From a virus: DNA of 64,000 nt. Under the pieces are notes generated by a model that saw only the letters and a list, made by a program, of their open reading frames with translations, searched no databases and had not been told where the DNA came from. Of the stretch, positions 3,696-21,992 are shown piece by piece. Every line of letters starts with the position of its first letter. Position 1 is the stretch's first letter. The stretch lies in IMG/VR virus record IMGVR_UViG_3300005611_000012, positions 8,075 through 72,074 of that record, one strand, 5' to 3'. The translations under genes were made by a program, and so were the position numbers.

Positions 3696-3755
3696 GGGAA
3701 GGGGGAGGGGGGTCCCCAGGCGCTACGCGCCGTGGGGACCCCCCTCCCCCTTCCC
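3696..3755. repeat. Perfect 23-bp G/C inverted repeat with inner 5-bp stem and 3-nt loop
   Basis: GGGAAGGGGGAGGGGGGTCCCCA (3696-3718) and TGGGGACCCCCCTCCCCCTTCCC (3733-3755) are exact reverse complements; GGCGC-TAC-GCGCC plus a 1-nt bulge lies between them. Confidence 0.95.
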
Positions 3756-12871: not shown

Positions 12872-13038
12872 TGATTGAGATGCTAAAAAGAATAATCCGC
12901 CAGTACGAGAAACAGAATCCAGTGCGTACAGCAGATGTCCATCCAGACAAATGCGAGTGCCTACGGTGTGTCATCGACCTCGCCCGCGCGCATGTAGCAT
13001 ATATGGAGAAAGACCATGTCCTTCCGGAAAGCGATTGA
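12871..13038 (+). CDS. 55-aa protein with HxxxCxCxxC motif (missed by ORF track)
   Basis: MIEMLKRIIRQYEKQNPVRTADVHPDKCECLRCVIDLARAHVAYMEKDHVLPESD; TAATG overlap. Confidence 0.55.
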   Translation: MIEMLKRIIRQYEKQNPVRTADVHPDKCECLRCVIDLARAHVAYMEKDHVLPESD

Positions 13039-13204
13039 TAAGCTCTTAATCAAGCACTTCGGCGATAACTGGGAATGCCGCCTGAAAGGCTGCAACGTCC
13101 GGAACCAGTCACACTATACAGGCATCCACTCTGTCCTGCGTATGGGCTGCCATAAAGTCGACTGTAAGCGATGTGGACAGGTCCATGAGTTTGACCCTTC
13201 ATAA
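13016..13204 (+). CDS. Small Cys/His-rich protein
   Basis: 62 aa; CRLKGC...CHKVDCKRCG; GGAG RBS. Confidence 0.55.
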   Translation: MSFRKAIDKLLIKHFGDNWECRLKGCNVRNQSHYTGIHSVLRMGCHKVDCKRCGQVHEFDPS

Positions 13205-13294
13205 ATGATTATTACGACCCATTAGGGCGATAATCACGATATTTTTTCAAAAGCAAATAGGCATAGTGAAGTAGCTATGTAGGAGATCTATGAG

Positions 13295-13579
13295 ATGGGG
13301 TACAGGATATATTTAGACGAAAATGTCACTAACTACGCGCATAGCTTAAGTGATTATTACCGCACTGGTAGGGATGATCTAGAACTGGATCTCGATTGCC
13401 AGAGAACATTCCAATCGTCAGAAATAGGGGCTATTGAGAGACATCTGTATAGTCCTTTTAATTGTAATCTTGAGTTTGAAATATTCAGCGTGAAGTTGGC
13501 CGAAGACACTTACCGGCACTACGAAACCCATAAAGAGGCCCTTGAAGGCGCTAATCTCATAATTTTTTTCGATTACTAA
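13295..13579 (+). CDS. Hypothetical protein (paralog family member)
   Basis: 94 aa, AGGAG RBS; DTYRHYETHKEALEGANL. Confidence 0.65.
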   Translation: MGYRIYLDENVTNYAHSLSDYYRTGRDDLELDLDCQRTFQSSEIGAIERHLYSPFNCNLEFEIFSVKLAEDTYRHYETHKEALEGANLIIFFDY

Positions 13580-13665
13580 TATGCTCATACAGGTGCCGAG
13601 GTAGTACCTTACACTTCGAGGAGGGGCTTCTTCGAAGCACCCCCCCGGTACACTTATATACACTT

Positions 13666-13686
13666 GGGGGCAGAGCCCCCTTGATG
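13666..13686 (+). promoter_or_regulatory. Hairpin element P1 (putative virion-RNAP early promoter; predicted +1 at G13686)
   Basis: GGGGGC-AGA-GCCCCC-TTGAT-G; one of four matching intergenic elements. Confidence 0.65.
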
Positions 13687-13784
13687 AGGTGCATAGAGTC
13701 ACTTGAAGGCGTAAGCCGAGTCCCTGCCAATTGGGAGTGCATCTCACTTAACCAACCTACTACAATCCATGAAAGGATTATCCC

Positions 13785-13988
13785 ATGAGCAACATCATCC
13801 TAGCAGCCGGTCTCACCGCAGGCGGAATCGCACTTGGAATGCGTGAGGACGTTCGCAAGTCAGTCAAGAAAGCAGCCGGAGTAACATCCGATGCAGTCAA
13901 GGCAGGCAAGCAGCGCTTCACCCAGACCGAGGCTTCTCTCGTTGAAACTGAGACCGTGACAACGCTCCCTCGCCAGGCTAACGCCTAG
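13785..13988 (+). CDS. Small early protein
   Basis: 67 aa, AAAGGA RBS, first gene downstream of P1. Confidence 0.7.
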   Translation: MSNIILAAGLTAGGIALGMREDVRKSVKKAAGVTSDAVKAGKQRFTQTEASLVETETVTTLPRQANA

Positions 13989-14000
13989 GCCGCTCGTGGA

Positions 14001-14022
14001 CCCGTCCCCTTCGGGGGGCGGG
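14001..14022 (+). other. GC-rich hairpin (TTC/TTCG loop) after stop codon; terminator-like without U-tract
   Basis: CCCGTCCCC-TTCG-GGGGGCGGG. Confidence 0.6.
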
Positions 14023-14344
14023 ATTCCCACTCTCGAAGATTGTTTGCTTAATCTTTATGCTCAATCTTTATGGGAGACCAAGATAGTATGGTTGGGTTCA
14101 TGCGTACACGAAGATGGTCTGGTTAAGGGGTACTGCTTAGCTCTGCTTCCTAGCCCATCTATACGCAAATCCCATAACCTACCTACTATCCATACGATAA
14201 TCGAACATATACCTAAAACGTATAGTTCCTATCGTTCTACCCATTTATCTCATTCATTTGTGTATATCCCTCTAGGATTGATTCTAAGCCTCACTGAGAG
14301 ACGTTCAACTCCAAGAGCGTAATTCCTACAGGTATACACCTTAC

Positions 14345-14365
14345 GGCCGCAGAGCGGCCTTGCTG
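14345..14365 (+). promoter_or_regulatory. Hairpin element P2 (predicted +1 at G14365)
   Basis: GGCCGC-AGA-GCGGCC-TTGCT-G. Confidence 0.65.
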
Positions 14366-14403
14366 AGCGATACTGCTCGTCTTTTAACCGAAAGGACTAT
14401 CCC

Positions 14404-14742
14404 ATGTCTAAATACTCTCAACTCGACTATGATCTGTGTAACCCGATCATTATCCCTCCAACTCAATTCCATGCTCGCCCTGCTCGGCTCATCAAGACCA
14501 CATATTCTTGTAATGGCGCCACTGCTCTCGTTGGTATGGACCTTGCCAAAGATATCCAACTTTGGATCGCTACTGCCAACTTCATCGATTTCCCTCCAAA
14601 CGATGGCTGTGTCTGGATAGACAACGAAGGCAAGAACGAAGGCTTGCTCGATCACCTGGTCCGAGCTCAAGTCATTGAATTCAACAACCGCTTTATCGGA
14701 ACCAACAAAGGCTATGCCTTTGAGTGTAAAGTGATGATCTAA
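14404..14742 (+). CDS. Early hypothetical protein (weak DUF4313-like appearance)
   Basis: 112 aa, AAAGGA RBS; IATANF...VWIDNEGKNEGLLDHLV. Confidence 0.6.
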   Translation: MSKYSQLDYDLCNPIIIPPTQFHARPARLIKTTYSCNGATALVGMDLAKDIQLWIATANFIDFPPNDGCVWIDNEGKNEGLLDHLVRAQVIEFNNRFIGTNKGYAFECKVMI

Positions 14743-14871
14743 GTCAACTGCGCGCTCACTCGAGCTGCGCATCATGGGGGAGGTCAGAGCTGGTGGGAGT
14801 GGTTACCCATCATTAAGGCTCTGGCCTCTTTATGCCCATTATCAACTAATCTCAATTAAAGGACCATTAAT

Positions 14872-15111
14872 ATGCATTACTCTGAAACTGAAAGCATGGT
14901 ACGCCTGAGCCGTTTTAAGAAATCAGGTAAGTGGTATGATGACCATGCCATCAATATGGCTGGTTATTATAATACCAGCTCAGTTCACGAAGCAGTCAAG
15001 TTAGCTGCCAAAGCTGCCAACATCTCACATGATGGCTACTTCTTCGTCGTCCTCGAACCCTATCACGAGTATGCACATCCAGTGACATGCTATCTCAATT
15101 ACAACAGTTAA
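14872..15111 (+). CDS. Early hypothetical protein
   Basis: 79 aa, AAAGGA RBS. Confidence 0.7.
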   Translation: MHYSETESMVRLSRFKKSGKWYDDHAINMAGYYNTSSVHEAVKLAAKAANISHDGYFFVVLEPYHEYAHPVTCYLNYNS

Positions 15112-15123
15112 AGGACCATTATT

Positions 15124-15483
15124 ATGGAAACCATTATCACAGCTGCTGGTCTGGCAGCATTCACCGTAGCAGGCTTCATGTTCCTGCTATCCAAAGTCAT
15201 TGGCTGGAGAGGCATCTCCAAACACAAAGCCAAAGTCGACATTGGCTGCTCATTCGCAGCGTTCTTCCTATTCGCAGGTACATCCACTCTGGGGATCTTC
15301 GTCGCTGTCATGTCAGGCTTCATCGCCTCAGTGGCTACGTCGCTTATCGGCAAAGTCGTTAATCCTGCTCAAAAGCCGCTCACTCCTCAAGAGAGAGCAG
15401 CTCAAACCCGTTCCAACCTTGACCGCATCAGAACTGCGCCTCAAAGATGGAAAGCCAAGGCTGATTCGTCAGTCTGGCATTAG
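15124..15483 (+). CDS. Early membrane protein
   Basis: 119 aa, 2-3 hydrophobic segments, AAAGGA RBS, followed by a terminator. Confidence 0.7.
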   Translation: METIITAAGLAAFTVAGFMFLLSKVIGWRGISKHKAKVDIGCSFAAFFLFAGTSTLGIFVAVMSGFIASVATSLIGKVVNPAQKPLTPQERAAQTRSNLDRIRTAPQRWKAKADSSVWH

Positions 15484-15519
15484 TCCGATCACCCTCGATC
15501 GGGCATCCTCCCTTACCTT

Positions 15520-15555
15520 AAGCCCTGGTGACTTCGGTCACTGGGGCTTCTTTTT
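15520..15555 (+). terminator. Rho-independent terminator
   Basis: AAGCCCTGGTGAC-TTCG-GTCACTGGGGCTT followed by CTTTTT. Confidence 0.85.
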
Positions 15556-15568
15556 GTCTAGTACACTC

Positions 15569-15589
15569 GCGGGCAAAGCCCGCTTCCCG
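15569..15589 (+). promoter_or_regulatory. Hairpin element P3 (predicted +1 at G15589)
   Basis: GCGGGC-AAA-GCCCGC-TTCCC-G, immediately after a terminator. Confidence 0.65.
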
Positions 15590-15637
15590 GCGTTTCCATA
15601 GTGGAAGCGTCTTAACCAACAATCCAGGAGATTAATT

Positions 15638-15973
15638 ATGACCCTTGCAAATGTCGCTATCCGTTCAGGTGTGGGCTTTGTCGTCGGTTCAGCTATCGGT
15701 CGGGTCTTCCGTCCTGTCACTACCACTGTGAAAACAGCTGGAACCATGATCACCAATGCTAACAAGTCGATAGTCCGCAGCGCCGAAACAAAAGCTTTGG
15801 TCTCTGAGACCAAAGATGTCGTCCGCCGGATGAACCTCCAGACAGAGCAGCGCCAAGCGCTGATCGACTTTGGTAACAACTCGATTGAGTTGAACTCCAA
15901 GTTCAACGAATTCGACAATGATACCCAAGCTACCTTGAATGCATGGGAGCAAAAGCTCCCTGATGTCATTTGA
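15638..15973 (+). CDS. Early hypothetical protein
   Basis: 111 aa, AGGAG RBS. Confidence 0.7.
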   Translation: MTLANVAIRSGVGFVVGSAIGRVFRPVTTTVKTAGTMITNANKSIVRSAETKALVSETKDVVRRMNLQTEQRQALIDFGNNSIELNSKFNEFDNDTQATLNAWEQKLPDVI

Positions 15974-15984
15974 GTTTTTTGGTG

Positions 15985-16006
15985 AGCCGGCAGTGCCGGC
16001 TTGCTG
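15985..16006 (+). promoter_or_regulatory. Hairpin element P4 (predicted +1 at G16006)
   Basis: AGCCGGC-AGT-GCCGGC-TTGCT-G. Confidence 0.65.
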
Positions 16007-16023
16007 ATTGCACGGAGTAGCTC

Positions 16024-16668
16024 ATGGCAGACTTTAAAACGCAGATGATGAAATTCGCCGCACAGCGAGTTCTTTCGGAAGCCGTTCGAATTGCTGCTCG
16101 AAATGTCGAGACTACAGCCAAGAACAAAGTCCGTGATGGCAAACTCCGTAAAATCGTTAAATCCACCACTATATCTCAGAATAAGGAAATTGAGACAATG
16201 GCACGTACTGAAACAACACGCTTCTCTGAACCAACAACGCGAGCTCAGGCCGCAACTTCAGGGAATGACAAAAAGCCCAAAGAGCCAATCGACTTTTGGG
16301 TAAACACCATGCTCGTCGACTCCGACGGTGCTGAGCCAATCCGGATCCTGACCGGACGGCCGCTGAAAGCATTCAACGCTAATCGCGATGTGACAACCTC
16401 CAATGAGGATTTCAACCGCGTCAACGCAATCAACAATGCGTTCGTTGAAATGTTGAATGCTGATGCCAATACCCTCGAGCTTGGCGAAAGCAAGTTCTAC
16501 TCACCGCAGGGAACCCCTGTCGACAAAGAGTCGGGCGAGCTCAAGCTCAAGAAAGGCATTTACCTTCAGCTCCACCGTGAGGAAACCGATCACGCCGCCG
16601 CAGCTGCGGAAGCTCAGGACATTGTCGCGTCCGAGGGCGATCGCTTGCGGAAACTGTTCGGCAACTAA
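16024..16668 (+). CDS. N4 gp2/Drc-like ssDNA-binding RNAP II cofactor; second in-frame start at 16198
   Basis: FWVNTML...GRPLK...SNEDFNRVNAINNAFVEML...LELGESK...LQLHRE resembles the gp2 pattern FWLNIG...GIPLD...N..F....N.L...LEPGE...LQLRR; position in the early region ahead of RNAP1. Confidence 0.65.
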   Translation: MADFKTQMMKFAAQRVLSEAVRIAARNVETTAKNKVRDGKLRKIVKSTTISQNKEIETMARTETTRFSEPTTRAQAATSGNDKKPKEPIDFWVNTMLVDSDGAEPIRILTGRPLKAFNANRDVTTSNEDFNRVNAINNAFVEMLNADANTLELGESKFYSPQGTPVDKESGELKLKKGIYLQLHREETDHAAAAAEAQDIVASEGDRLRKLFGN

Positions 16669-16687
16669 GCTGAACTCCAAGCCCCGA

Positions 16688-16730
16688 GGCAACCGCCGCT
16701 CCCACCCTTCGGGTGGGGCGGCGGATTGCC
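16688..16730 (+). other. Long GC hairpin with TTC triloop
   Basis: GGCAA-CCGCCGC-t-CCCACCC-TTC-GGGTGGG-GCGGCGG-ATTGCC. Confidence 0.7.
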
Positions 16731-16757
16731 GACTGAAGATAGTTTAAGGATAAAACC

Positions 16758-16964
16758 ATGGCAGATAGTTTAAGTGTTGAAGTAAGCGTGAGTGACGTAC
16801 CTAACTCATTCATTGCTGGAGCCCTAGTTGACCGACTTTGGGACACAGGCAACGCTGAAGACCTGGCAAAGCAGATCTTCCAGGAAGCTGAAGACGAAGG
16901 TCACGAAGACGGTGTCAGAGAGCTAATTCTTGAATTAAGCAAGCTCTACTCACCTAAAACCTAA
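16758..16964 (+). CDS. Small acidic hypothetical protein
   Basis: 68 aa, AAGGA RBS. Confidence 0.65.
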   Translation: MADSLSVEVSVSDVPNSFIAGALVDRLWDTGNAEDLAKQIFQEAEDEGHEDGVRELILELSKLYSPKT

Positions 16965-16987
16965 AAAGGGCCAAAAGAGCCCTTTTT
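16963..16987 (+). terminator. Terminator-like hairpin flanked by a 15-bp direct repeat
   Basis: AAAAAGGGC-caaaaga-GCCCTTTTT; CCTAAAACCTAAAAA occurs at 16953 and 16999. Confidence 0.6.
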
Positions 16988-17056
16988 CGCAAATCACCCC
17001 TAAAACCTAAAAATGCTGGTCTTTATCCTGTAAAGATCCAGTAAGAGGATAATACC

Positions 17057-18025
17057 ATGTCGCAAGGACTATTCTCTTCACCTACCCAGGACACAAAACC
17101 TGAGTTCGTGACCAGACAAAATGTAGCGTACCAAGCCCTCGATCAGTCTCGTCTCGACGACGCTCCATTCCATGAAGCAGAGACAGAGCTCGAGAAACTC
17201 TTCGACAAAAATCAGCTCAAGCCACGGCTCAGAGATTGGTTCGGGTCTCCCGAATTCATCGACTTCGTAAAGGGCAAAGGGATGTCAGAATCTGTCACTC
17301 CCAAGTTCTGCATCGAGCTCTGTGCCACCATGGCTATGATGAAACGTGCCACACCAGGTGCGCTCATCGGGATCCTCTATAAAGAGTTCCTCACTGATGC
17401 CGGCAAGCACGTCGCCATGCAAGAATGTGCCCACGCTCTGGAAGAGTGTGTCGATGCTGATCTGGTCGATTACTCCATGAATCAGCAGATGTTCATCATC
17501 AGATTGGACATTGATCATATCACCCGCCAAGAGCTCGATCGATATCAATATCCTCTACCGATGGTGGTTCAGCCCAAAGTGCTGAGATCTAACACCCAAA
17601 ATGGATATGTTTCACGTGAAACAGGCCGAGGTCTCGTTGTCTTGAAAGCTGGCCGGCAGGCTCCGCTCTACGAGCAGGCTGACGTCTGTCTTGACCACTT
17701 GAATCGTATGAACTCCATCCCTCTAACACTCAACATGCAGACGGCAGAGCTCATCGACAACGAGTGGAAGCATATCGATCGACGCAAGCCAGGTGAAACA
17801 CCAGCCCAATTTGAGCTGCGCCGGAAAGCCTTCGAGAAGTATGATCAGTCCTCCAAGGATGTCATGCACGCTTTGATGGGGATCCGGGACAGATTCTGGC
17901 TCACCCACAAATATGATCGCCGGGGCAGAACCTACTGCCAAGGATACCATGTCAATTATCAAGGCACGTCCTGGAACAAGGCTGTCGTTGAATTCGCCAA
18001 TAAGGAATTAATCCATGGGATATAG
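17057..18025 (+). CDS. RNA polymerase II subunit 1 (N4 gp15-like)
   Basis: 322 aa; FWLTHKYDRRGRTYCQGYHVNYQG (T7-family DxRGR motif); LPMVVQPK block. Confidence 0.92.
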   Translation: MSQGLFSSPTQDTKPEFVTRQNVAYQALDQSRLDDAPFHEAETELEKLFDKNQLKPRLRDWFGSPEFIDFVKGKGMSESVTPKFCIELCATMAMMKRATPGALIGILYKEFLTDAGKHVAMQECAHALEECVDADLVDYSMNQQMFIIRLDIDHITRQELDRYQYPLPMVVQPKVLRSNTQNGYVSRETGRGLVVLKAGRQAPLYEQADVCLDHLNRMNSIPLTLNMQTAELIDNEWKHIDRRKPGETPAQFELRRKAFEKYDQSSKDVMHALMGIRDRFWLTHKYDRRGRTYCQGYHVNYQGTSWNKAVVEFANKELIHGI

Positions 18026-20227: not shown

Positions 20228-20739
20228 CATTATGGCACAAAACGGCTGAGTATAAACTCATCACTGATCATTATCGTGGTGAGTATGCTGACCGCTCCGG
20301 CCGGCACAAAATGGAGCATATCAAGGAAGGTTGCCGTCTTCTGGTCGGATGGCAACGTCCTGACGTAGAGCATCAAGCTTTCTGCCTTCATCCTTTAGTA
20401 GAGACCGAAGGGTTCACCTATGAAAGAAAGCATTCGTATATCTTGGCAGCTGAGATGATGAAATTTGCTACGGCATACCTATGCCGTCCTGAAACCGATG
20501 ATATTACCTATCGGGGATCCAGGACATATCTCTTTAAATATCTTGGACCAATGTCTGAAGCTTGCGCTTGGTTGCTGCTTGCAGACAAAGTCCAAAATCG
20601 ATCGGATTTCATGAAATATCATGCATTCACCCATGCCCGGGCTGACATGCTTATCCGGTATTTTGATCTCTGGATTCAAACTCTTCACACTTATTATCTG
20701 CCGAAAGAGCAGTTCAACGGAAAGGCACGCCGTACATGA
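20224..20739 (+). CDS. HD-domain-like (Mesh1/SpoT hydrolase-like) protein with HD replaced by HP
   Basis: RSGRHKMEHIKEG...AFCLHPLVETE...LLLADKVQNRSDF aligns by eye with RKSGEPYIxH...AALLHDxVED...KLADRLHN. Confidence 0.5.
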   Translation: MTLWHKTAEYKLITDHYRGEYADRSGRHKMEHIKEGCRLLVGWQRPDVEHQAFCLHPLVETEGFTYERKHSYILAAEMMKFATAYLCRPETDDITYRGSRTYLFKYLGPMSEACAWLLLADKVQNRSDFMKYHAFTHARADMLIRYFDLWIQTLHTYYLPKEQFNGKARRT

Positions 20740-21992
20740 CATTCACATTCACAGAATACTCCGCTCTTGATTATCTCAAGATCGATATCGCTTCTAACTA
20801 TGGAGACCATAATGGTCAGGACCTTGAAAAACTCAACTTCGATGACCGCATTGCGTGGTTCGATGCCCGAGAATCTGAAGGCAGACTTGTTGAACTCATT
20901 GATTCAGCAGATGAACCAGCCCTTTATTTTGGGGGACTTCAAGCATACCGAGATACTCTTGATGGGAACCCTACGGGTTATGCGATTGCACTGGACGCCT
21001 GCTCGTCCGGACTTCAAATACTGTCTGTCCTCGCCAATTGTGAAAAATCCGCTCGTCGGTGCGGGATACTGAACACCGGTAAAAGAGAAGACGCATATAC
21101 GTCTCTCTTCGGTGACATGCAGACCCAGGCAGATTTCAATCTCTCCGCGGGACGTAAAGACCTAAAGCAAGCCATTATGACATCGCTCTATGGTTCTGTG
21201 GCTATGCCGCGGCAGCTGTTCGGTGAAGGATCAGATGCTCTGAAGCTCTTCTACTATATCATGGAGACCGAGATCCCAGGTGCATGGTCATTGAACTTGG
21301 CTCTGAAGGGTCTCTGGCAGTCTTGGGCCACCGAACATGAGTGGGTGGTTCCGGACGGCTTTGAAGTCTCAATGGCTGTCGAAGAGAACATGATCAATGA
21401 GATCCAGTTCTTCGGGGAACCAGTGGAGGTGTTCACAAAGCAAGCCAAAGGTACACCTAAAGGCCTGTCACTCTCTCCAAATATCGTTCACTCGATCGAT
21501 GGGATGATTGTCAGAGAGGTGGTGCGTCGGTGCTACCACAATCCTAAGCGCATTCGTGAAGTCGAGAGCGCTTGCAACATTGCGATCAAACGACGTGAGC
21601 GTCGTAAGTCTGCTTCAGGCCATGGCCGGAAGAAAGACAAAGAATTGAGAGCCCTTTGGGAACGGTACCTGGCTTCTGGCTTTCTCTCTGCTCGGGTCCT
21701 CGACCTGATCGACGAGAAAAACGTCAATATCGTCTCAGCACACGCTGTGATGGAGCTGATCCAGACACTTCCAGTGGATCCTTTCCCTGTTTTGGCGATC
21801 CATGATTGCTTCCGGGTTCACCCGAATTACGGAAACGATCTGCGCCGGCAGTATAACCGCATCATGCGAGATCTCTGCGCATCAAACATTCTTGGCGACA
21901 TCGCTACTCAGATCACTGGGCGCCGCCAGGAACTCAAGAAAATTGGCAATATCGCCGATTCAATCCTCAATGCGGATTACGCACTCTCATAG
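20736..21992 (+). CDS. RNA polymerase II subunit 2 (N4 gp16-like)
   Basis: Motif A ALDACSSGLQIL, motif B RKDLKQAIMTSLYG, motif C AIHDCF. Confidence 0.93.
   Translation: MTFTFTEYSALDYLKIDIASNYGDHNGQDLEKLNFDDRIAWFDARESEGRLVELIDSADEPALYFGGLQAYRDTLDGNPTGYAIALDACSSGLQILSVLANCEKSARRCGILNTGKREDAYTSLFGDMQTQADFNLSAGRKDLKQAIMTSLYGSVAMPRQLFGEGSDALKLFYYIMETEIPGAWSLNLALKGLWQSWATEHEWVVPDGFEVSMAVEENMINEIQFFGEPVEVFTKQAKGTPKGLSLSPNIVHSIDGMIVREVVRRCYHNPKRIREVESACNIAIKRRERRKSASGHGRKKDKELRALWERYLASGFLSARVLDLIDEKNVNIVSAHAVMELIQTLPVDPFPVLAIHDCFRVHPNYGNDLRRQYNRIMRDLCASNILGDIATQITGRRQELKKIGNIADSILNADYALS

Follow-up and report, generated by a model that had tools for sequence, protein, structure and literature searches.

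G/C-rich hairpins with a re-coded loop as probable early promoters in a divergent N4-like phage

The window analysed here is a 64,000-nucleotide stretch of viral DNA, bases 8075-72074 of a 73,486-bp IMG/VR virus contig. It belongs to a divergent N4-like (Schitoviridae) phage: the identity of its RNAPII to that of the nearest cultured relatives is only about 44%, and the DNA runs with related sequence are metagenomic, two carrying the label marine or marine plankton. The window encodes a virion RNA polymerase (vRNAP), whose central region shares 23% identity with the N4 mini-vRNAP over 970 residues (E 2e-41), the two subunits of RNAPII, and an early gene related to N4 gp2, which in N4 is a cofactor of RNAPII. 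The homologues of this gp2-like gene in relatives carry the domain PF26984 (Phage_N4_Gp2); a Pfam search of the small early proteins gave no match. Four intergenic hairpins, P1 to P4, lie in the 2.4 kb upstream of the gp2-like gene and are the subject of this work. The positions of the genes and elements are given in table 1.

Table 1. Genes and sequence elements discussed in the text; positions are those of the window.
Feature	Position	Strand	Description
Left-end-like block upstream of P1	13600-13663	+	GGTAGTACCTTACAC, C-run 13640-13646, TACAC boxes 13649-13653 and 13659-13663
P1	13666-13680	+	Hairpin GGGGGC-aga-GCCCCC, loop centre 13673, linker TTGAT, putative start G 13686
Candidate terminator of the P1 unit	14001-14022	+	RNA hairpin after the first early gene, TTCG loop, G.U pair, no T-run
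P2	14345-14359	+	Hairpin GGCCGC-aga-GCGGCC, loop centre 14352, TACAC 14335-14339, putative start G 14365
Intrinsic terminator upstream of P3	15520-15556	+	13 pairs, TTCG loop, G.U pairs, T-run
P3	15569-15583	+	Hairpin GCGGGC-aaa-GCCCGC, loop centre 15576, TACAC 15562-15566, putative start G 15589
P4	15985-16001	+	Hairpin AGCCGGC-agt-GCCGGCT, 7-bp stem, loop centre 15993, putative start G 16006
gp2-like early gene	16024-16668	+	32% identity to N4 gp2, E 1e-09
RNAPII small subunit (N4 gp15-like)	17057-18025	+	phrog_2166, E 1e-80
RNAPII large subunit (N4 gp16-like)	20736-21992	+	phrog_2051, E 2e-133
vRNAP, 4131 amino acids	42717-55112	-	Open reading frame and translation; polymerase domain at about residues 1690-2626

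An earlier note on this DNA had described four hairpins with an A(G/A)(A/T) loop and a covarying outer stem at these places, and all four are confirmed. The stems are perfect and consist purely of G/C pairs, save for an extra A:T pair that brings the stem of P4 to 7 bp, against 6 bp in each of the other three; all the loops have three nucleotides. The features common to the four elements are the core GC-A-R-W-GC, a T directly after the 6-bp stem and a G located 13 nucleotides from the loop centre (4/4). Each element is intergenic, lies in sense orientation and stands 18-99 nucleotides before an ATG preceded by a Shine-Dalgarno sequence; the shortest of these distances, 18 nucleotides, separates the putative start G of P4 from the gp2-like ATG. 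The pentamer TACAC is found upstream of P2 and P3, as the same note had reported, and is doubled at P1.

There are five all-G/C hairpins with a 6-bp stem and a three-nucleotide loop in the 73.5-kb genome, against 0.16 expected. The full motif occurs at four sites, all on the plus strand and all within 2.4 kb, and is absent from 300 dinucleotide shuffles. A chance origin of P1-P4 is excluded. A relaxed scan of both strands (4-bp stems, loops of three or four nucleotides) found no further convincing copy, and a degenerate motif scan of IMG/VR matched only the contig of the window itself. One antisense hairpin, CAAAGGC-ata-GCCTTTG (14706-14722, minus strand), is preceded by ttacact and lies inside an open reading frame of 112 amino acids. 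Its stem is A/T-rich and there is no G at +13; its resemblance to the promoter motif is probably fortuitous.

When the 4-kb region was searched against the phage collection at the DNA level, for both near and distant relatives, there was no match. Relatives were recovered by protein-guided searches of metagenomic sequence: L035, with 76% identity in the RNAPII small subunit, and a series of contigs with gp2 homologues at 72% to 54% identity (L086/L087, L088, L102/L103, L104 and L089). The motif is present in every recovered relative. A search of related genomes had been suggested by the earlier note, and it yielded 28 further copies in six metagenomic relatives, that is, a set of 32 sites in seven genomes (the window, L035, L086, L088, L089, L102 and L104). 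These include orthologues of P1 with changed stems in L086 (position 986), L088 (2345) and L102 (2839), and orthologues of P3 in L086 (3096), L088 (5554) and L104 (1500).

Numbered from the loop centre, four positions are invariant in the 32 sites: C at -2, A at -1, G at +2 and T at +8. The pair G-7/C+7 is found in 29 sites and G-3/C+3 in 28, while the three inner stem pairs alternate freely between G:C and C:G. The central loop base of the coding strand is A, G or T and never C, and the base at +1 is A in 28 sites; the loop ata is found in relatives L088 and L102. Downstream of the stem, a pyrimidine occupies +12 in 30 sites, G occupies +13 in 29 (otherwise A) and +14 is a purine in all 32. 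The G placed by the earlier note at 13 nucleotides from the loop centre is conserved in the relatives. Stems of 7-8 bp still have G at +13; the distance is therefore counted from the loop and not from the base of the stem, as in N4, where the start distance is also measured from the loop (PMC4496689).

All of the 192 stem cells are Watson-Crick pairs and none is a G.U pair. In 53 of them both partners have changed, and in no cell has one partner changed alone. The set scores 0.71 for covariation (shuffles, 0.14), a value that collapses once the partner columns are slid.

A close term of comparison is N4 itself, whose P1, P2 and P3 are reportedly DNA-hairpin promoters of vRNAP (Glucksmann 1992; Davydova 2007; Gleghorn 2008; reviewed in PMC4496689). 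On the coding strand of the N4 record these read GTTGC-ttc-GCAAC (P1), AAGAAGC-tcc-GCTTCTT (P2) and AAGCTGC-tcc-GCAGCTT (P3), with a G 11 nucleotides from each loop centre. The N4 template loop is 5'-G-R-A-3', centred at -11, and the polymerase recognises -11A/G, -10G, -8G and +1C (PMC4496689); residue W129 stacks on -11G (PMC4496689; PMC13492108). The description of N4 in the earlier note (a purine loop on the template, centred at -11) is correct when checked on the N4 sequence.

The elements of the window share with those of N4 an inverted repeat of 5-7 bp, a three-nucleotide loop closed by a C:G pair and then a G:C pair (GC-loop-GC on the coding strand), a G start, putative here, at a fixed distance from the loop, a location at the left end and before gp2, and, at P2 and P3, a predicted 5' stem-loop on the transcript. 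The loop-closing pair, and with it a template G equivalent to -8 of N4, is present in 4/4 elements. The positions also correspond: P4 lies immediately before the gp2 homologue, which is the position of N4 P2, and P1 follows a block resembling the N4 left terminus. The elements themselves differ in three respects. First, the coding loop, T-Y-C in N4, is A-N-W in these elements; the template loop is therefore 5'-W-N-T-3', usually with a pyrimidine at its centre, and there is no G-N-A triloop. The four template loops are TCT, TCT, TTT and ACT. Second, the putative start is 13 nucleotides from the loop centre instead of 11. Third, the stems of the clade always have at least 6 bp and are about 91% G/C. 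The predicted energies of the DNA hairpins range from -6.9 to -8.8 kcal/mol for P1-P4, compared with -3.7 and -5.2 kcal/mol for N4 P1 and P2.

The block upstream of P1 resembles the first 95 nucleotides of the N4 genome, in which CCTTACAC, a C-run and TACACgtTACAC stand ahead of N4 P1. It is kept in L086 (about 900-985), L088 (about 2260-2344) and L102 (about 2750-2838). The phage probably has its physical left end at about 13.6 kb of the window, with the contig as a permuted assembly. Like P1, N4 P1 has a TACAC box and a C-run upstream. A TACAC within 20 nucleotides upstream is found at 17 of the 32 promoters of the clade and at 7 of 48 promoters with a T-N-C coding loop (N4 P1 included; N4 L032:77-90), the background being 1.2%; we found no description of the box as a promoter element.

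DNA runs X1 and X2 contain contigs of a relative at about 90% identity (80-99% by piece), which was compared with the window over 12904-17500. The differences are mosaic. The open reading frames at 13295-13579 and 14872-15111 are absent, the stretch 16766-16947 and the P1 leader (13693-13782) are replaced, and the homology picks up again at 13593, precisely at the left-end block.

On this evidence, P1-P4 are very probably vRNAP early promoters of a marine N4-like (Schitoviridae) clade, with a re-coded loop and a start at +13. They are located as N4-type promoters are: at the left end, in sense orientation and ahead of gp2 and RNAPII, and the genome has a vRNAP gene. The motif is not found downstream of gp2, either in the 73.5-kb genome or in the loci of relatives that reach 4-6 kb past gp2. 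Since transcription of gp2 and RNAPII has to come before any RNAPII is made, a motif found only upstream of these genes fits early and not middle promoters. The finding is a sequence-based prediction, and the class of element itself is expected in such phages.

The mechanism proposed, by analogy with N4, is as follows. Negative supercoiling after injection would extrude the 6-bp G/C inverted repeat as a cruciform, and vRNAP would bind the hairpin of the template (minus) strand. The polymerase would read the conserved top of the stem, GC-loop-GC on the coding strand, with the template G at the -8G position of N4. RNA would start at the conserved G, which lies 13 nucleotides past the loop centre, and its second nucleotide would be a purine. 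The transcripts of P1-P3 would open with a stem-loop and end at intrinsic terminators close by, and P4 would drive the gp2-like gene. The longer and G/C-richer stem may compensate for the lost G-N-A triloop.

The stem at the start of the transcripts had been reported by the earlier note at each conserved G. It stands for P2, where a 5-bp RNA stem GAGCG/UGCUC starts at the G, and for P3, where a 10-bp stem does so. It does not stand for P1, whose 5' stem is long-range, closes a multibranch fold and is not significant (z = -1.3), nor for P4, which has none. The P1 leader beyond 13692 is replaced in the relative at about 90% identity, and the 5' stem of P1 is therefore not conserved. When the 32 sites are folded from +13 by minimum free energy, 23 have a local hairpin opened by the very first nucleotide, against 42% of 1895 control positions (p = 5e-4). 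A stricter test, requiring a stem of at least 4 bp at one exact offset, gave no sharp peak (9 sites at +13, 8 at +12 and 9 at +8). The mapped +1 G of N4 P1 and P2 likewise opens a stem. The 5'-terminal stems may have the protective role that was proposed for them.

Several points weigh against the assignment of P1-P4 to vRNAP. The template loops have neither the -11 purine nor the -10G nor the sheared G.A pair, all of which N4 vRNAP and extrusion of the N4 hairpin need (PMC4496689). There is no hairpin promoter directly before the RNAPII small-subunit gene, where N4 has its P3; early transcription of this gene by read-through from P4, or from another signal, is possible. The four putative start Gs are placed from their sequence and by analogy. 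The sites were gathered by a search for perfect stems, so the complete pairing is partly due to ascertainment, and the 32 sites include orthologues and hence are not independent. The P4 series, which was located by gene context before gp2, forms an unbiased subset for stem pairing: the hairpin at this position is perfect in 8/8 genomes, with the stem GCCGGC or GCCCGC/GCGGGC and with four-nucleotide loops in L089 and L106. Finally, the middle promoters of the Pseudomonas phage LUZ7 are also G/C-rich hairpins with stems of at least 6 bp.

LUZ7 offers two experimentally defined classes for comparison. Its early starts, mapped by ONT-cappable-seq, are at a G 13-14 nucleotides from the hairpin centre (PMC9163698). 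The tandem hairpins before the Drc gene read AGACC-tac-GGTCT and CAGGC-tac-GCCTG. The elements of the window share with these early promoters a conserved three-nucleotide loop and the spacing of the G (4/4), and differ from them in the loop, which in LUZ7 is T-A-C on the coding strand (G-T-A on the template), and in the stems, which in LUZ7 have 5 bp of mixed composition. The middle promoters of LUZ7, used by RNAPII, are G/C-rich hairpins with a stem of at least 6 bp, a loop of three or four nucleotides and a G start about 15 nucleotides downstream (PMC9163698).

P1-P4 could accordingly be read as middle promoters of the heterodimeric RNAPII acting with gp2, as in LUZ7, and not as vRNAP promoters. 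The description of the LUZ7 middle class does fit them, including the four-nucleotide P4 loops of L089 and L106. Their location is not that of the class: LUZ7 middle promoters are situated beyond the RNAPII genes, in the middle region, whereas all copies of the motif stand upstream of gp2 and RNAPII, genes needed before RNAPII exists, and there is none in the middle region of the window genome or in the loci of the relatives. Moreover, P4 and P1 correspond in position to two vRNAP promoters, N4 P2 and N4 P1. On the middle-promoter reading there would also be no recognisable early promoter in the early region. The one C-GAA-G hairpin, at 13632, a type that the earlier note had named as the alternative, was considered for this role and rejected, as it is not conserved in L086, L088 and L102 and has no G at +11 or +13. 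We regard an RNAPII function of P1-P4 as very unlikely.

It is still less probable that P1-P4 act in RNA, as processing, stability or termination hairpins within longer early transcripts that start elsewhere. They would fold in RNA too, P3 and P1 stand just after terminator-like hairpins, and one contig of a relative, from an RNA library, runs across the P4 site. That P3 follows a terminator, as the earlier note had stated, is borne out by the intrinsic terminator at 15520-15549 and its T-run. However, there is no T-run after the hairpin at any of P1-P4, so that they lack the U-tract of an intrinsic terminator, and the invariant T and the G at a fixed distance form a downstream signature of DNA type. 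The stems contain no G.U pair, although the real terminators adjacent to them use G.U pairs. The TACAC upstream is conserved far above its background. Rfam has no family on the P1-P4 hairpins; its sole match in the region, a sub-threshold one at 15484-15562, is terminator-like. A scan for sigma-70 promoters found no -35/-10 match at P1-P4, and without these elements no other promoter would be left for the genes that follow.

A role as DNA cruciforms of another kind (loading of single-stranded DNA-binding protein or gp2, priming or replication, DNA entry) is the most improbable reading: perfect palindromes with Watson-Crick pairs only do indicate a structure at the level of DNA, and the genome has a much longer G/C palindrome (3700-3750) without obvious promoter role, but there is one sense hairpin per early unit, with an asymmetric downstream T(N4)G-R at which the 5' untranslated region begins, and the elements match the experimentally defined promoters of N4 and LUZ7 position for position, the loop excepted.

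The polymerase domains of 16 vRNAPs were aligned with MAFFT, five from the clade (the window and P0021-P0024, 52-81% identical) and 11 from outside it, at 22-30% identity. In the column of N4 W129, all five clade sequences have Ala or Ile (motif N-P-[AI]-R), whereas 9 of the 11 others have Trp or Tyr. The aromatic residue is also missing from the vRNAP of L025 and from that of L090, a sister with a tgc loop. This change fits an altered reading of the loop only weakly, as judged from the alignment. The specificity loop retains its (S/T)-L-(S/T)-G motif, which agrees with the constancy of the GC-GC top of the stem. The specificity-loop residues equivalent to N4 D901 and R904 were tried as indicators of the loop type and rejected, since they vary even among T-N-C phages. 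Only the vRNAP of the window is physically joined to its promoters; among the contigs with full-length vRNAPs of the clade (L107-L109), L109 is associated with L089 by a shared sample, and L107 with L086/L087 by consecutive run accessions. In the specificity-loop region (about residues 2480-2540), the clade vRNAPs carry an insertion of about 20 residues relative to N4, ahead of R-T-L-S-G.

Tentatively, we propose that the polymerase of the clade has evolved a different way of reading the hairpin. It would accept a template loop 5'-T-N-T-3', often all pyrimidine, with no sheared G.A pair and no central purine to stack on the tryptophan employed by N4; the all-G/C stem of 6 bp would compensate, and the start would be shifted by 2 nucleotides. 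If true, this would be a natural orthogonal pair of a single-stranded DNA-hairpin promoter and its polymerase. The earlier note had spoken of a promoter code for an enlarged vRNAP; none of the results links the motif to the size of the polymerase.

Annotated phages of Pectobacterium and Klebsiella already contain this loop type, which had passed without comment. The Pectobacterium phages CB1, CB3 and CB4 (Cbunavirus) have predicted hairpin promoters that were treated as N4-like, with no remark on the loop (PMC6027278). The hairpins of CB4 (KY549659) are TGGCC-ata-GGCCA, ATAGTGC-ata-GCACTAT, CGTGC-ata-GCACG and AGGCGC-ata-GCGCCT, three of which are annotated in GenBank, as regulatory features, as putative N4-type promoter stem-loops. 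They share with the elements of the window the GC-A-N-A-GC architecture (GC-ata-GC in CB4), the G at +13, a TACAC before the first copy, a 5' stem (GGCAATCCTGCC) and similar leaders, and their architecture is that of the relatives L088 and L102, which also have ata loops. They differ in having shorter and less G/C-rich stems, and a purine (A) as the central template base instead of the C or T of the window phage; the CB4 promoters are themselves predictions. CB4 is a distant phage: an initial search with the vRNAP of the window gave no match in its genome.

The Klebsiella phage pKP-BM327-1.1 (Efbeekayvirus) has three hairpins in its early region with the coding loop aca (T-G-T on the template) and G or A at +13. 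Here the closing pairs are CC-GG and not GC-GC, the stems are A/T-rich and of 7-8 bp, and the central template base is G. No description of these hairpins was found in the literature searched.

The loops were surveyed in about 58 N4-like early regions. T-N-C loops (tcc, ttc, tgc and tac) recur in about 30 lineages, one of which is the nearest outgroup, L090/L105 (loop tgc, gp2 identity 49%). Among 46 T-N-C promoters from 18 genomes, 30 have their first G-purine at +11. Mean stem length and G/C content are 5.4 bp and 75% in these promoters, and 6.3 bp and 91% in the clade. Other loops recur in N4-like metagenomic lineages, namely ctt (L064, L065, L066 and L085) and tgt (L067 and L069); no recurrent T-N-C loop was found in the early region of L025. 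Loop codes in the family seem to vary more than one would expect from the N4 literature. A-N-W is thus a minority loop code and is not unique; what is particular to the window phage is the pyrimidine at the centre of the template loop, a position at which CB4 and the Klebsiella phage have retained a purine. The earlier note had spoken of a distinct promoter code; this is right by comparison with N4 but goes too far as to novelty, the spacing of 13 nucleotides being known from LUZ7 and the loop type being present in CB4 and pKP-BM327-1.1.

In the N4 model, the G-N-A triloop has several jobs: extrusion at physiological supercoiling, resistance to melting by single-stranded DNA-binding protein, and base-specific recognition through R119 and W129. 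The clade described here, together with at least two cultured genera, puts T-N-T on the template and yet keeps the remaining architecture. These phages are natural variants in which one may ask which of the jobs of the triloop cannot be dispensed with and how polymerase and promoter specificity evolve together. The motif also offers a second consensus for annotating N4-like early promoters: GC-A-N-W-GC, then T, then G at +13. A practical yield could be further orthogonal pairs of a single-subunit polymerase and a single-stranded DNA promoter.

Some other features of the region were noted. The leaders contain a CA-rich YAACC motif (CTTAACCAAC, TTTTAACC and TCAACC), which recurs at 13746-13757, 14384-14392 and 15611-15620, between the 5' hairpin and the Shine-Dalgarno sequence. 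It occupies the same place in relatives, and Pectobacterium phage CB4 has cacttaaccta. The motif may be an unstructured leader that enhances translation. In the P2 leader (14379-14397), the Shine-Dalgarno sequence of the 112-amino-acid gene is paired within a second hairpin, GUCUUUU/AAAGGAC, and the 5' hairpin of P2 together with the following UCUUUU scores as a weak terminator. These leader hairpins could serve attenuation or translational control.

Between the P1 unit and P2 there is an A/T-rich stretch of about 310 nucleotides (14030-14340) with no credible gene and with a 14-nucleotide direct repeat (AATCTTTATG..). One unit of the repeat is absent in a relative, in which the adjoining P2 region (14311-14400) is swapped for 302 other bases. 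In the stretch 16968-17056, ahead of the RNAPII small-subunit gene, a terminator GGGC...GCCC TTTTT is followed by CACCC(C)TAAAAC, a sequence common to the window and L035 (about 1740-1820).

RNA run X6 contains contigs of a related phage that cover early genes only (13817-13905 and 15645-16750). The depth is 126 on the first gene after P1 and 8-9 over the post-P3 gene and the gp2-like gene; as these are depths of contigs, they are not evidence of transcription or of start sites. The long G/C palindrome at 3700-3750 is single-copy and has arms of about 17-23 bp, with the inner part GGCGC-tac-GCGCC and a plus-strand loop of the T-N-C type. It sits where the leftward late genes and the rightward tail-fibre block diverge.

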